Source of the DNA: an uncultured Chloroflexia bacterium
GTDB lineage: Bacteria > Chloroflexota > Limnocylindria > Limnocylindrales > CSP1-4
Direction of reading: 5' to 3'
NCBI GenBank assembly: GCA_963746845.1
Contig: CAVVCZ010000004.1
Coordinates: 1-64,000 of the forward strand
DNA: 64,000 bases
Both the position numbers and the translations under genes were made by a program. Shown in pieces: positions 7,762 to 12,979 of the stretch. The notes under the pieces were generated by a model. That model searched no databases. It saw only the letters and a program-made list of their open reading frames with translations, and was not told the DNA's origin. How positions within the stretch are numbered: the first letter of the stretch is position 1; the number at the start of each line of letters is the position of its first letter.

Positions 7762-8619
7762 TCAGTCGGGAGGCTCGGGCTCCACGGCGAACCGGTCCAG
7801 GACGATCCGCTGCGGCGTGTCGCCGGCCTTCTCGAGGGCCGCCTCGAGCGCGAACAGGTCGTCGACCGCGAGGGGCAGCGGCAGCTCGTTCGGCTGGTAG
7901 GTGGCGCCGTACTCGTAGAGCTCGCCCGGCGTGGTGCTCATCTCGATGTGGGCGCCGAGGATGTGCTTGATGGGCCGGCCGGCGGCGTCCTCGGCGCGGG
8001 CAAGCGCTGCGACCCGCCGCGTGCTCGCCCGGAACACGGGCCAGTCCCGGGCGAAGAGCCAGCCCGGGTAGAGCGCGTCGCCGCTCAGCAGCAGCCCGCG
8101 CGTCCGGTCCAGGAGCGTGACATGGTCCGGCGCGTGGCCGGGGGTCGGCAGGACGTCGATCGGTCGGTCGCCCAGGTCGAGCGTCGCCTGGCCCGTCGGC
8201 CAATCGGCGATCCCGAAGAACGCGGCCACCTCGTCGGCGCCGATCTCGGCCACCGAGCCCGCCGGCAGATCCGCGAACTGGCCGTCGGCTGCTCGGTGGT
8301 CGCCGTGCCCGTGCGAGTGGCTCACGATCAGCCGGGGCAGAGCGCCGCGCCGCGGCCCCCGCGCGGCGACGATCTCGTCGACCGTTCGCCGGAGCGGGAA
8401 AAGTTCCGGATCGGCCGTCGCCCCCGTGTCGTGCAGCAGCGCCGCTTCCGCGCCGAACAGCAGGTACAGGAACGGCGCCTCGAAGTTGACGCACTTGCTC
8501 TGGCGGAGGACGTACGTGTCGTCGTCGTAGGCGACGACCTGGATCGGCGGGTCGGTCGAGCCCTCGCAGTCGGCGGCACCGTGGATCCACCGGACGGCTG
8601 ACAGGTCGGTCGGCGGCAC
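7762..8619 (-). CDS. MBL-fold metallo-hydrolase
   Basis: SHSHGHGDH (HxHxDH), PGHAPDH, LSGD; GTG start at 8619. Confidence 0.85.
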   Translation of the reverse strand: MPPTDLSAVRWIHGAADCEGSTDPPIQVVAYDDDTYVLRQSKCVNFEAPFLYLLFGAEAALLHDTGATADPELFPLRRTVDEIVAARGPRRGALPRLIVSHSHGHGDHRAADGQFADLPAGSVAEIGADEVAAFFGIADWPTGQATLDLGDRPIDVLPTPGHAPDHVTLLDRTRGLLLSGDALYPGWLFARDWPVFRASTRRVAALARAEDAAGRPIKHILGAHIEMSTTPGELYEYGATYQPNELPLPLAVDDLFALEAALEKAGDTPQRIVLDRFAVEPEPPD

Positions 8620-8642
8620 CGCGTCAGGATATCGGCCGGTCC

Positions 8643-9707
8643 CTAGGCAGACGGGACCGGGCTCGTCGGGGCGGCGCTCGGGGTCATCGAGCTCGGCGGT
8701 CGCGATGAACCGGACGAGTCGAGCCGCAACACGCCGATGATCCATCGCTCCGAGAACCCGGCTCCGAATGCCACCAACAGGTACGTTCCCGGGTTCGCGA
8801 CATTCATGCCGGGCATCACGTTCCACGAGAGGAGGTAGTACGCGACGACCGCGACCGTCGAACCGACGGCGGCACGGACGGCGATCTCGATCCCGCGGAT
8901 CTGGTAGTCGGCGTAGGTCACCGGCTTGTCCCGAAGCTGGAGGAAGGCGCTCAGCAGGGCCCCCAACGTCCCGATCGCGGCGATTCCCACGGCCGTCAGG
9001 ACGGCCAGGACGGCGTCGCCGCCGGGCGGCGTGATGGCCCATGCGGTCAGGCTCGCTCGGCTCACGAGGATCGTCGCAAGGAACACCGCGACCACCATGC
9101 TGGCGATGGCCGCGTTGCGGAACTTCTCGAGACGACGCTTCTGGAGCGCGTTGTCGATCGACCATGCGGCCGAGATGTCGTTGAGGATCCCGATCCCGGT
9201 GTCGAGCTGGAAGCGGAGGTCGTCCCCCTCGCCATCGATCTTCACGTCGCTCGCCAACGGGCTGGCCGACGCCTTCAGGCGATCGTTCACCTCCGTCGCC
9301 TGAGCCTGGAGCCAGATGGACGGGACGAGCCAGATCAGCAGCCGCCTAGCTCGCCCGAGGTCGTCGTCCACGATCTCGACGTTCGGATCCTCGGTTTCCA
9401 GCGACACGCGCGTGTGCTCGAGGATCTCGATCGACTCGTCGGCGCTGTGCAGGTCGAACCAGACCTGATCGCCATAGTGGGTGAAGACGCTCCGGAGGTT
9501 CATCTCCAGCTCCGACCAGTCGGACCGCAACTGGAAGGCCTGGTACGTTCGAAAGTCGGTCAGGCGGTAGATGCTATCGGGTCCGCTCGCCTCCTCGGCC
9601 CGCCACTTCGGCAGCGGCATCTTGTCGAGCCGCCCCGCAATGCGCGCCATCACGTCGAGCCGTGCATCCCCGGGTGAGGACAGACGCTGCGACGCGGTCA
9701 CATTCAT
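8643..9707 (-). CDS. Hypothetical membrane protein (soluble N-terminus, 4 C-terminal TM helices)
   Basis: GTLGALLS...RAAVGSTVAVV...AFGAGFSER TM bundle. Confidence 0.7.
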   Translation of the reverse strand: MNVTASQRLSSPGDARLDVMARIAGRLDKMPLPKWRAEEASGPDSIYRLTDFRTYQAFQLRSDWSELEMNLRSVFTHYGDQVWFDLHSADESIEILEHTRVSLETEDPNVEIVDDDLGRARRLLIWLVPSIWLQAQATEVNDRLKASASPLASDVKIDGEGDDLRFQLDTGIGILNDISAAWSIDNALQKRRLEKFRNAAIASMVVAVFLATILVSRASLTAWAITPPGGDAVLAVLTAVGIAAIGTLGALLSAFLQLRDKPVTYADYQIRGIEIAVRAAVGSTVAVVAYYLLSWNVMPGMNVANPGTYLLVAFGAGFSERWIIGVLRLDSSGSSRPPSSMTPSAAPTSPVPSA

Positions 9708-10074
9708 GCCTGCGACCCTACGCCGCGGGCGTTGCCGAGCCGTCTCGCCTGCCGGTGCCGCGGCGCACGATCGTGACATCGCACCCGACACGGCCAGCCG
9801 CCAGATTTTCGGTACGGATCGACGATCGACCGGATCGCCGACCGACGGCCGACACGACGGCGGCGGAGGGTGGATGCGCGCGTTCTGGCGCCAAGGTCGT
9901 CCTGGCTGTCGTATGAGGGGGCTTGGCAGACGAACGGCCCACACGGCGGTAGCCGCGCGGCCGCCCGCCCCGGGTCACTTGCCAACGACCAGGACGGCCG
10001 GATGACGATGGCACCGGGGGGTCTCGTCACGGGATGCTCTAAGCGTGACCTGACACCCGCAGCCCGGAGCCAAG

Positions 10075-10374: not shown

Positions 10375-10923
10375 ATGAACGACGCGGACCATGACGCCCG
10401 GACGTTCGGGCACTCGACGATCGCCCTCGTCGTCGGCGACATCACCGCCATCGCGGCGGACGCGATCGTCAACGCCGCCAACAGCGCGTTCGCCGCCGGA
10501 GGCGGTGTCGATGGGGCGATCCGGGCGGCGGCGGGCCCCGAGCTGTCCGGCGAGATGCGGCGACGCTATCCGACGGGGATCGAGACCGGTGACGCGGTCT
10601 CGACCGGGGCCTACGGCCTGCCCGCCCGCTGGGTGATCCACGCCGTCGGACCCGTCTGGTCGGGCGGCGGCCAGGACAGGCTCGATCTGCTCCGATCCGC
10701 TTATCGCAGTGTCCTGGCGGAGGCCGAGCGACTCGGCGCCCGGACGATCTGCTCGCCGTCCATCAGCTCCGGGACCTTCGGGTTCCCGGCGGACACGGCC
10801 GCCGACGTGGCGCTCCGGACGGTCGCCGACCACCTGTCGGGCGGCTCGACGATCGAGCGCGTCACGTTCGTCCTCCGCGATCGGGGCTACGAGGCCTTCC
10901 GGCGCCGCCTCGCGACGATGTAG
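10375..10923 (+). CDS. Macro-domain protein (YmdB/MacroD-like ADP-ribose hydrolase)
   Basis: GDIT, IVNAAN, GGGVDGAI, VIHAVGP, ISSGTFGFP. Confidence 0.92.
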   Translation: MNDADHDARTFGHSTIALVVGDITAIAADAIVNAANSAFAAGGGVDGAIRAAAGPELSGEMRRRYPTGIETGDAVSTGAYGLPARWVIHAVGPVWSGGGQDRLDLLRSAYRSVLAEAERLGARTICSPSISSGTFGFPADTAADVALRTVADHLSGGSTIERVTFVLRDRGYEAFRRRLATM

Positions 10924-10926
10924 CCG

Positions 10927-11335
10927 CTAGCTCGGGGTCGCGCCGACCCGTTCGATGCCCGGCGACGTCGTCGAACCCATGATCGAAGGTCAGAATCCGG
11001 TCGATCCCGCGACGCTGCATGACCGCGACATGGATCGCGTCGCGGGCCGACAGCCTCCGGTTCGCCGCGACGAGCCGGCGCGCACGCTGGACGTCGTCGG
11101 TCTCGATCGGGTGGATCACGTCGACGACGCCGAGCAGCACCTCGAACGCTGGGTCGATCGCATCGCGGCGGTCGATCGCGGTGTACCGATGGAGGATCTC
11201 CTGGAGGACCTCGACGTCCGTGGCAAGGGTCTCGCCGTCGACCACGGCCCGCTCGAGGAGCTGGCGTGCCGTGAGCTTGTTCGGATGATCGCCGCCGACG
11301 AGGTACATCGGGATGTTCGAGTCCACGAAGATCAT
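10927..11335 (-). CDS. vapC: VapC-family PIN toxin (apparent 1-nt insertion near C-terminus)
   Basis: MIFVDSNIPMY, EVLQEILHRY, SARDAIH, TFDHGFD. Removing one base near 10963 restores VPGIERVGATPS*. Confidence 0.85.
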
Positions 11336-11595
11336 GCCGGCGGCGGGGTTCCGTAGCCGCGCTCGATCTCCTCGAGCAGCTGATCGATGTCTCCGGTCGG
11401 GAACGCGTGGCGGCTGGCCCGGTGGATCGCCGCGAGCTTCTCGCCGGAATCGGGAGCGTCTTCGGCGTCGCGCGCAGCACGGAGCGACGCGCGCACCCAC
11501 TCGGCGGTCGTCATGCGCCGCCGCCGGGCGAGCCGCTGGAACTCGGCGAGCTCGTCGTCGTCGAGCAGCACCTGGAGTCGCTTTGTCATCATCAT
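11332..11595 (-). CDS. vapB: RHH/CopG-type antitoxin (VapB)
   Basis: MTKRLQVLLDDDE...MTTAEWVRASL; ATGA overlap with vapC. Confidence 0.85.
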   Translation of the reverse strand: MMMTKRLQVLLDDDELAEFQRLARRRRMTTAEWVRASLRAARDAEDAPDSGEKLAAIHRASRHAFPTGDIDQLLEEIERGYGTPPPA

Positions 11596-11596
11596 G

Positions 11597-11625
11597 AGCC
11601 TAGTCGACTCATGGCGATGAGTCAA
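11597..11625 (-). promoter_or_regulatory. vapBC promoter with inverted-repeat operator
   Basis: Minus-strand TTGACT-N17-TAGGCT directly before the ATG (leaderless); IR GACTCAT-GGCG-ATGAGTC (11606-11623) covers the spacer and -35. Confidence 0.75.
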
Positions 11626-11710
11626 CGAATGGGATCTGCGGGCTGGCCAGATTTCGCGTCCAGGCGCGAGGCGAGACGACGGCGAGACGCCCGCGCGGTT
11701 CGATGTGCCC

Positions 11711-12136
11711 ATGGAAACGGCCATCGTCGCCGCGATTGCGGCGTTCCTCCCGACGTTGCTCAATCGCGTGGGCGAGCGTGCAGGCGAGTCCATCGCCGAC
11801 GACCTGACCTCCGGTGCCGGGAAGCTCGCCAGGAAGCTGTGGGATCGACTCTCCGGCGCGGTCCTGGGCGACCCGGCCGCCAGGGCCATGGCCGAGAAGG
11901 TCGCCGCCAAGCCGGACGATCAGCGAGCCCAGGATGCCCTGGCCCTCTCGCTCGAGGACGTGCTCGGTCGTGATGCGTCGCTCCGCCGCGACCTCGAAGC
12001 GATCCTGGCCGCTGCCGGCGACACGACCGCCTCGACGGGCGGCACGGCGATCCGGCAGAACGCGACCGACGGCGGCGTGAACATCGCCGGGGGCAACTAC
12101 GGGACGGTTCGGACCGATCGCCGATCGTCGACCTGA
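11711..12136 (+). CDS. Bell-like helical protein with C-terminal amyloid-like motif
   Basis: Hydrophobic N-terminal helix, KLWDRL...KPDDQRAQDAL helical domain, C-terminal QNATDGGVNIAGGNYGTV. Confidence 0.7.
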   Translation: METAIVAAIAAFLPTLLNRVGERAGESIADDLTSGAGKLARKLWDRLSGAVLGDPAARAMAEKVAAKPDDQRAQDALALSLEDVLGRDASLRRDLEAILAAAGDTTASTGGTAIRQNATDGGVNIAGGNYGTVRTDRRSST

Positions 12137-12145
12137 ACCGCCGAC

Positions 12146-12979
12146 TCAGGTGTCCGTGCGCTTCTTCTTCTCCGGATTGGCGCCCGGGAGGAAGTAGGCG
12201 AAGGTCGTGAGGACCAGCCCCACGAAGAACAGTCCGGCGCCGATCGTCGTCCACTGGGATCGATCCGGGGCGCCGAAGATGCCCTTCTGGCCCGCCTCGA
12301 TGATGCACGTGTTCTGCTCGGCGCCGAGTTCCGGGTACCTGGTGAGGCAGTCGTTCTGAGCCTGGTCGTTCTGGGCGAAGTCGCCGGCCGACGCGATGAT
12401 CGGGTAGCCAAACGCGGCGAATCCGGCGAAGGCGACCAGCAACCCGACGATCAGCACGAGCTTCGCCGGCCCGCGCATCCGGGCGAACCTCGACGCTGGG
12501 TCGTCGACCTTGATCCGGATCTTCTCCTGACGGGCGTCGACGATGCCGTAGTTGCCACCCTCGACGTTGACGCCATGTCCCGTGGCTCGTTGTTCGACGC
12601 GCTTGGCGGGCTCGGGCGGCGGCGGCGTTGGTGCCGTCGCTGCGGCCCCGGGCTGGCCACGGCTGACCAGCACGACGAGGGTCGTCTCGCCGATCTTGAT
12701 CTCGTCGCCCGGTTCGACCGCCGGTGTGCCGGTGATGGGCTTGCCGTTGAGGAGCGTTCCGTTCCGGGACTGGAGGTCCTCCAGGTGGAGTCCACCTGCG
12801 GCATCCCACCAGAGCTCGGCGTGGCGCCCCGACATCAGCTGGTCGCCGTACAGGCCGCCCGGTCCATCCACGCCGCGCCCGAGCTCGAGCCCTTGCTCGG
12901 GGACCTGGATCCGCGTGTCGTGGTTCGGGCCGCCGATGACGCGAAGAACGACCTCGTCGCCGGGATTGAAGCTGGCCAT
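12146..12979 (-). CDS. FHA-domain membrane protein carrying the same amyloid-like motif
   Basis: FHA motifs LGRG, SGRHA, SRNGT; Pro linker; QRATGHGVNVEGGNYGIV; two TM helices. Confidence 0.85.
   Translation of the reverse strand: MASFNPGDEVVLRVIGGPNHDTRIQVPEQGLELGRGVDGPGGLYGDQLMSGRHAELWWDAAGGLHLEDLQSRNGTLLNGKPITGTPAVEPGDEIKIGETTLVVLVSRGQPGAAATAPTPPPPEPAKRVEQRATGHGVNVEGGNYGIVDARQEKIRIKVDDPASRFARMRGPAKLVLIVGLLVAFAGFAAFGYPIIASAGDFAQNDQAQNDCLTRYPELGAEQNTCIIEAGQKGIFGAPDRSQWTTIGAGLFFVGLVLTTFAYFLPGANPEKKKRTDT

Follow-up and report, generated by a model that had tools for sequence, protein, structure and literature searches.

What connects two small neighbouring genes whose products carry almost the same stretch of about twenty residues, in one case near the end of a helical protein and in the other beside a membrane segment? 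The question is raised by a locus of an uncultured Chloroflexia bacterium (GenBank assembly GCA_963746845.1, contig CAVVCZ010000004.1, positions 1 to 64,000 of the forward strand); these 64,000 nucleotides are referred to as the window, and the 3.56-Mb assembly (71% G+C) served as the set for genome-wide comparison. The two genes, designated gene A and gene B, are arranged as follows:

11711-12136, plus strand: gene A, 141 aa
12137..12145, no strand: gap of 9 bp between the convergent stop codons, tail-to-tail
12146-12979, minus strand: gene B, 277 aa

We lean towards the reading that the pair is a self-contained two-gene module of the type formed by Bell proteins and bacterial amyloid signalling sequences (BASS), in which the partner is a membrane-anchored FHA protein and the coupling would be of the amyloid kind.

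The ATG at 11711 was taken as the start of gene A in preference to the GTG at 11705, in keeping with the family N-terminus 'ME..'. The initial annotation had described two adjacent convergent genes sharing a motif, 12 of 18 residues being identical with synonymous differences between the codons; both open reading frames (ORFs) and both motifs were recovered at these positions, namely Q116-V133 of gene A (nt 12056-12109) and Q130-V147 of gene B (nt 12592-12539), 12/18 identical. The match spans 20 residues (12/20 identical; E 1e-5, BLASTP, single comparison); different codons are used at 7 of the 12 identical residues of the 20-mer, the nucleotide identity over this stretch being 36/60. The motif of gene A, which had been placed at the extreme C-terminus, does lie near the end of the protein, with 8 residues following it. 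In a six-frame regular-expression scan of the 3.56-Mb genome the motif core was confined to genes A and B; in a whole-genome tblastn search each motif region had the other gene as its best non-self match (E 0.002; next 0.03-0.1). In a related pair (genome G004) different codons were found at 11 of 20 identical motif residues. Recent gene conversion is thus unlikely, because the identical residues often differ in codon in the window and in G004 alike. Ten 20-residue motif cores contained G 30%, V 16%, I 6.5%, L 1%, N and Q 5% each, P 0 and K 0. BASS motifs are reported, in the accessible text of Dyrka et al. 2020 (bioRxiv 10.1101/2020.01.06.895854), to be rich in G/N/Q/V/I and poor in K/P/L; the composition appears to fit this bias in part, N and Q being low.

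Recurrence of the pair: An intact convergent pair was found in three further related metagenome-assembled genomes (MAGs): G004 (3-bp gap), G287 (3' ends overlapping) and G884 (genes abutting). In G003 the genes are likewise tail-to-tail, the partner being cut by the contig end; in G853 (L063, G853:C4, 4865-6161) the Bell-like gene lies in three frames and the FHA-2TM (two-transmembrane) gene in two, as assembled, which could be due to decay of the cassette or to assembly errors. Two further proteins, P0002 and P0005, are 75% and 61% identical to gene A and gene B, respectively; both come from one 1639-bp contig of the same source and probably represent a pair on one metagenome contig.

Every locus carries a distinct variant of the motif, common to both of its genes. 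For the test of co-variation, the best ungapped 18-mer scores of Bell tails against partner linkers were arranged in a 5×5 matrix; the own partner was the maximum of every row and every column, and the true pairing was the only one of 120 permutations that reached the observed sum (1 of 24 with the close window/jgi pair counted once). The helical, FHA and 2-TM parts are just 28-55% identical to those of the window across the loci, the close jgi pair excepted; with the other parts so divergent, matching of the motif within each locus therefore needs co-evolution. The motifs of gene A and gene B are thus solidly indicated to co-evolve, which is evidence for a functional pair; the initial annotation had named, as grounds for refutation, homologous loci that lack the paired motif, and the outcome in G004, G287 and G884, together with the 1/120 permutation result, was that pair and motif co-occur and co-vary. 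A further type of motif is shared by P0003/P0009 (Bell) and P0006 (FHA-2TM), 14/18 identical, on different contigs. The tail part of the Bell-subfamily hidden Markov model matched the partner motif region in G004 (E 6.7e-5) and G287 (E 9.7e-4).

Gene A consists of the following parts:

11711..12016, plus strand: predicted Bell-type helical domain, residues 1-102; a hydrophobic N-terminal helix beginning with M-E leads into a helical bundle (AlphaFold2 and family)
12017..12136, plus strand: C-terminal tail, predicted to be disordered, residues 103-141 and stop (predicted local distance difference test score, pLDDT, 44-63)
12050-12109, plus strand: motif core in the tail, residues 114-133 (match to gene B)

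The AlphaFold2 model, obtained with an alignment of 120 sequences, has helices over residues 2-102, with a mean pLDDT of 81 and most 10-residue blocks above 90; residues 103-141 are predicted to be disordered. No family was found for gene A in Pfam, NCBIfam or PADLOC. By phmmer against 1.84 billion representatives, 347 cluster representatives were retrieved at E≤1e-3 and 20 at E≤1e-10; among the 150 matches listed, nearly all are 130-155 aa long, with MD/ME followed by a hydrophobic helix and with G/S/T/V/N-rich tails. Five long WD40 proteins (P0011, P0033, P0042, P0063 and P0129) were rejected as members of the family, about residues 29-73 of the query being matched repeatedly within the blades, i.e. 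spuriously. A profile of family members against PDB sequences gave nothing better than E 0.018; searches with the fold gave no Foldseek match in pdb at E≤1e-3 and no Z≥5 in VIA-align (best Z 4.4). The solved 'BabyBass' domain of Bab, 9h9v_A, aligned with gene A at Z 3.2 (rmsd 2.9 over 63 residues, rank 28; VIA-align); Bell folds vary widely in topology according to the accessible text of the Bab paper (Ibarlosa et al. 2024, bioRxiv 10.1101/2024.11.07.622273).

According to Dyrka et al. 2020 (bioRxiv 10.1101/2020.01.06.895854), whose HMMER searches for Bell proteins started from ONI86675.1, a Bell domain comprises about 100 aa, is helical, opens with a hydrophobic helix and has an acidic residue at position 2-3; it is found in proteins of about 120-140 aa or at the N-terminus of NLRs, and the C-terminal motif of the former is repeated at the N-terminus of the adjacent NLR. 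Gene A answers to the description of the domain: 141 aa, an M-E start followed by a hydrophobic stretch, and helices over residues 2-102. The context of its relatives was examined with a Bell-subfamily profile, an alignment of 19 sequences around gene A, which matched 22 of 301 sampled genomes of the phylum and retrieved proteins in NLR context at E 1e-8 to 1e-41. The count of contexts covers 20 of the 22 phylum loci and 21 Bell-like ORFs (16 stand-alone, 5 fused). The five fused ones are N-terminal domains of frames of 536-1067 aa, three of which were scanned with Pfam and contained NACHT and FGE-sulfatase (L048, L049) or NB-ARC (L046). In 7 of the 16 stand-alone cases the tail motif recurs close to the N-terminus of a neighbouring protein (E 3e-17 to 6e-3 by blastp-short); Pfam identified these motif-bearing neighbours as NB-ARC+TPR, NACHT+FGE-sulfatase, NACHT (two), AAA_16 and TPR. 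For the other nine no partner was found in the stretch examined, several stretches ending at the contig end. One protein, P0043, combines Bell, TIR and STAND in a single chain. Gene A is accordingly a probable member of the Bell family of the literature by homology (subfamily profile) and context, because its relatives adjoin NACHT/NB-ARC proteins in which their tail motif recurs, or form one chain with such proteins, which supports the relation to the founding Bell proteins indirectly; the description of the small protein as Bell-like in the initial annotation agrees with this.

Two observations on these relatives may be added. The NACHT proteins associated with Bell in L048, L049 and L055 end in FGE-sulfatase (FGS, C-type-lectin-like) domains; the STAND-FGS architecture has been linked to diversity-generating retroelements (Kaur et al. 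2021, PMC8195603, accessible text). Furthermore, Pfam EAD10 (PF19954) matched 4 of 120 family members; in P0108, the only member with the position seen, the match covers residues 124-150, within the C-terminal tail. EAD10 is given as the N-terminal element of TPR-GreA/B-C-PIN proteins in the accessible part of Kaur et al. 2021 (PMC8195603), and TPR-GreA/B-C-PIN is, in that of Ibarlosa et al. 2024 (bioRxiv 10.1101/2024.11.07.622273), Agp, the partner of Bab, which carries BASS11; the match in P0108 ties the 'effector-associated domain 10' of Aravind to the BASS11-type amyloid motif of Bab/Agp.

Gene B consists of the following parts:

12662..12955, minus strand: FHA domain, residues 9-106 (Pfam; AlphaFold2 strands 9-106)
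12599..12661, minus strand: Pro/Ala-rich linker, residues 107-127 (sequence; pLDDT about 32)
12539..12598, minus strand: shared motif, residues 128-147, about 25 residues before TM1, putatively cytoplasmic
12146..12466, minus strand: predicted two-helix membrane module (hydropathy windows, AlphaFold2, Cys positions), comprising
12386-12466, minus strand: TM1, about residues 172-198
12248-12385, minus strand: loop with Cys211 and Cys225, residues 199-244
12182-12247, minus strand: TM2, about residues 245-266
12146-12181, minus strand: basic tail and stop

The FHA domain was identified by Pfam (PF00498, E 4e-11, 43.6 bits vs cut-off 20.7) and by an NCBIfam model of the FhaB/FipA-type FHA domain (E 8.8e-16, below the equivalog cut-off); the closest solved FHA domains are those of GarA/OdhI and TB39.8 (E about 1e-6). 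The initial annotation had taken the motifs for phosphothreonine binding (GR, SxxH, NGT) to be intact. Five homologues share, without exception, G34-R35, S50, R52, H53, N78 and G79; the NGT asparagine, N73, varies, P0005 and the G004 protein having another residue there. In the AlphaFold2 model residues 109-160, motif included, are disordered, and helices cover residues 171-214, 220-235 and 241-261. Both loop cysteines are invariant in eight aligned 2-TM modules. Basic residues are present on the N- and C-terminal sides of both TM segments, which suggests an N-in/C-in topology, FHA domain, motif and C-terminus all facing the cytoplasm. Pfam and NCBIfam gave no NTPase and no repeats in gene B, in accordance with the earlier description of the partner as an FHA membrane protein and not an NLR, and neither the motif in the linker nor the 2-TM module and its Cys pair matched a family of either collection. 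The partner architecture of published BASS pairs is thus not that of gene B, which has an FHA domain and two TM segments, with the motif at residues 128-147 of 277. Assignment of gene B to the EACC1 membrane effectors was considered, by comparison with their description (Kaur et al. 2020), and rejected: two TM helices and a loop with a Cys pair are present, and no protease gene is adjacent.

Bell-2TM fusion proteins: P0012 begins with a Bell domain that shows 42% identity to gene A (residues 1-107; E 1.3e-14) and continues with a 2-TM module whose alignment with gene B spans 140 residues at 34% identity (E 2e-25); in the segment opposite the motif the glycine-rich character is gone and Pro is present. 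In P0020 and P0030 (the latter matching P0006 at E 0.006) a Bell-like domain is followed by an aligned 2-TM module with both cysteines kept, and the linkers retain G-rich repeats of a kind. Four more Bell-like proteins (P0049, P0084, P0125 and P0146) have two C-terminal hydrophobic segments. The fusions provide Rosetta-stone evidence, at the level of domain architecture, that the Bell domain and the 2-TM module act together, and they suggest that 'motif + 2-TM' forms a unit to which a Bell domain or an FHA domain can be attached.

How might such a pair operate? If it is a module of the Bell/BASS type, the two motifs would interact homotypically, most likely through cross-beta templating, like those of BASS1, BASS3 and BASS11, which formed fibrils or prions experimentally (bioRxiv 10.1101/2020.01.06.895854 and bioRxiv 10.1101/2024.11.07.622273, accessible texts). 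The FHA-2TM protein would cluster at the membrane and nucleate the fold there; a possible cause of the clustering is the binding of a multiply Thr-phosphorylated ligand by the FHA domains. The fold would then be imposed on the Bell tail and the N-terminal Bell helix released at the membrane, and the cell would be permeabilised or arrested in a response of the abortive-infection or regulated-death type. In its most specific form, a phosphothreonine-gated, membrane-nucleated prion-like switch with input from a Ser/Thr kinase of host or phage, a pore-forming Bell protein and 'motif + 2-TM' as a new nucleation platform, the proposal is put forward tentatively and may well be wrong. Prediction of a complex (2× gene B 120-170, 2× Bell 100-141) gave a score of 0.02 vs a mark of 0.32, without controls, and speaks neither for nor against binding.

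Several results weigh against the module as proposed. No kinase or phosphatase gene was found at any of the loci, and the genome has a single Pkinase match, a Hanks-type kinase at C1:20424-21044, on a contig other than that of the window. The motif of gene B is internal, between the FHA domain and TM1, vs a free N-terminus in the NLR partners, and the genes are convergent, not collinear as in the case of 91.3% of the published Bell/NLR pairs (Dyrka et al. 2020, bioRxiv 10.1101/2020.01.06.895854, accessible text). The motif of gene A in the window gave no match to Pfam EAD10, the fold search did not pick out the solved Bab domain (9h9v_A, rank 28), and P0001, P0004 and P0012 matched no family in PADLOC. 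The evidence for co-variation comes from 4-5 related lineages, all within a single bacterial family, and the Bell-2TM fusions fit a constitutive complex as well as a switch.

The main rival explanation takes up this last point: the motif would be a non-amyloid docking element (beta-strand augmentation or a short hetero-beta-solenoid) that holds the two proteins in a stable 1:1 membrane complex, the FHA domain adding phospho-dependent regulation or localisation, and a death switch would be unnecessary. Permanent covalent linkage of the two parts is viable, as the fusions show; the motif-aligned segment of P0012, without glycine-rich character and with Pro, is what is expected if the motif merely joins chains; the internal position of the gene B motif, near the membrane, is compatible with docking, and co-variation supports any specific contact, amyloid or not. 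On the other hand, relatives with the same layout of domain and tail pair with NLRs, and the tail motifs of BASS1, 3 and 11 formed fibrils and prions; both motif regions are, in their composition and disorder, in keeping with amyloid signalling motifs, and the fusions P0020 and P0030 keep G-rich repeat-like linkers, unlike P0012. Simple docking is, in our estimation, rather unlikely.

Still less likely than docking is a reversal of roles, in which the FHA-2TM protein would anchor or inhibit the Bell protein through the motif in the manner of an antitoxin, and loss or modification of the partner, for instance when its phosphorylation changes, would free a toxic Bell protein. The location of the genes on opposite strands would allow their separate regulation, and toxin-antitoxin genes adjoin the pair at two loci (PIN and a weak RHH match in the window; RES and a weak Xre-antitoxin match in G004). 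In the documented systems, however, the executioner is switched on by the partner that bears the motif; in G853 neither gene is intact, where retention of the inhibitor alone would suit the reversal; and toxicity of the Bell protein on its own is an assumption of this explanation, which we hold to be improbable. Lastly, a functionless similarity, i.e. a linker of low complexity and rich in glycine that the two genes owe to common descent or that gene conversion has homogenised from time to time, could appeal to a short G-rich motif in a 71% G+C genome and to gene adjacency, which favours conversion, but is likewise less probable than docking and indeed highly improbable in view of the uniqueness of the motif in the genome and its reciprocal best match, the synonymous differences at identical residues, the locus-specific variants matched within pairs whose other parts are 28-55% identical, and the same logic in relatives paired with NLRs.

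Relation of the proposed Bell/BASS-type module to known systems: With the Bell/NLR pairs the locus shares a helical protein of about 140 aa with an N-terminal hydrophobic helix and an acidic position 2, and a G/V-rich C-terminal tail motif of about 20-25 aa, a second copy of which lies in the neighbouring gene product. It differs from them in the partner, composed here of FHA, linker and two TM segments without NB-ARC/NACHT and without TPR/WD repeats, in the motif, internal and juxtamembrane here and N-terminal in the NLRs, and in the gene orientation. The Bab/Agp system of abortive infection in E. coli (BASS11), in the accessible description, provides the precedent of a motif-bearing partner, not an NLR, by which a small Bell-related helical executioner is activated through a common amyloid motif; it differs in that the partner here is a membrane FHA protein, the motif of the window is without an EAD10 match and the similarity to 9h9v_A amounts to Z 3.2. 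The actinobacterial proteins GarA/OdhI, FhaA (TB39.8) and FhaB/FipA are closest to the FHA domain of gene B by sequence, whereas the matches stop at this domain and gene B adds the linker motif and the 2-TM module.

In fungi (HET-S/NWD2) and in mammals (RIPK1/RIPK3-MLKL) a sensor is linked through an amyloid motif to an executioner that is helical and targets the membrane, and the switch of necroptosis involves phosphorylation as well. The likeness is one of logic and is meant as an analogy only, not as a relation of sequence or fold.

The initial annotation had regarded the combination of an FHA-membrane protein with a Bell-like one as undescribed, and no description of a Bell/FHA-2TM pair with an amyloid motif was found in the literature searched, supplementary tables, which possibly list partner domains, lying outside its coverage; FHA and transmembrane are not mentioned in a 2025 paper on the detection of amyloid motifs. 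A non-NLR partner as such is not new, since Agp already shows it; the differences lie in the membrane FHA partner, the internal juxtamembrane motif, the convergent genes and the Bell-2TM fusions. The conserved convergent orientation, the fusions and the published non-NLR partners (Bab/Agp) all go beyond what the initial annotation had contained.

Prokaryotic amyloid-type signalling is on record for Bell proteins with NLRs and, in one tested case, with a soluble TPR-GreA/B-C-PIN sensor. If the module is real, coupling by motifs would be independent of STAND NTPases and could be wired to Ser/Thr phospho-signalling, and nucleation would be possible at the membrane, the presumed site of action of the executioner; should the phospho-gated switch also be true, bacteria would have an equivalent of necroptosis with its kinase-amyloid-MLKL logic. 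The locus-specific variants of the motif represent natural specificity swaps and the Bell-2TM fusions a single-chain reference form; the small size of the proteins (141 and 277 aa) makes the hypothesis directly testable in heterologous hosts.

Distribution: The 2-TM module is rare. It was matched in 3 of 101 relatives, the genome of the window included, in 3 of 401 genomes of the class sample and in 2 of 401 of the phylum sample, one of the latter (G762) weakly (E 7.8e-4); one match in the class sample (G145) lies inside a 436-aa polytopic membrane protein and was discarded as due to chance. No confirmed locus of the module (0) was obtained from the genome-contig and metagenome-contig collections, no plasmid match to the proteins of genes A and B by tblastn, and no usable match from the ESM Atlas. 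Longer homologues were not found at 283-2000 aa, a range that leaves out the class of 277-281 aa and makes this weak evidence. The Bell profile matched 5 of 301 genomes of the family sample. With the close Bell alignment, one locus was found in metagenome contigs (L011; only residues 21-55 at a contig end, unusable) and only the two same-genus MAGs already found in genome contigs. Listing of sequencing runs gave small shares in metagenome DNA runs and no RNA run. The pair has so far been found in uncultured bacteria only, the host lineage being known from MAGs only.

Neighbouring genes: The pair behaves as a self-contained cassette, because the flanking genes differ between the loci: Macro, PIN, a weak RHH match, PadR and SnoaL in the window, a weak Xre-antitoxin match and a RES-domain gene in G004, and ORFs read as miaA- and hflX-like, from translations alone, in G884 and G853. 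Further features of the window are listed below:

10375-10923, plus strand: Macro-domain gene, upstream of gene A (Pfam E 5.8e-36)
10862-11335, minus strand: PIN gene (E 4.8e-18)
11332-11640, minus strand: RHH match (E 7e-4, below cut-off)
8643-9944, minus strand: ORF of 433 aa

The PIN gene together with the weak RHH match looks like a toxin-antitoxin pair of the VapBC type. The 433-aa ORF gave no Pfam family at E≤1e-3; its C-terminal half is hydrophobic, and it overlaps the 3' part of ORF 7762-9165.

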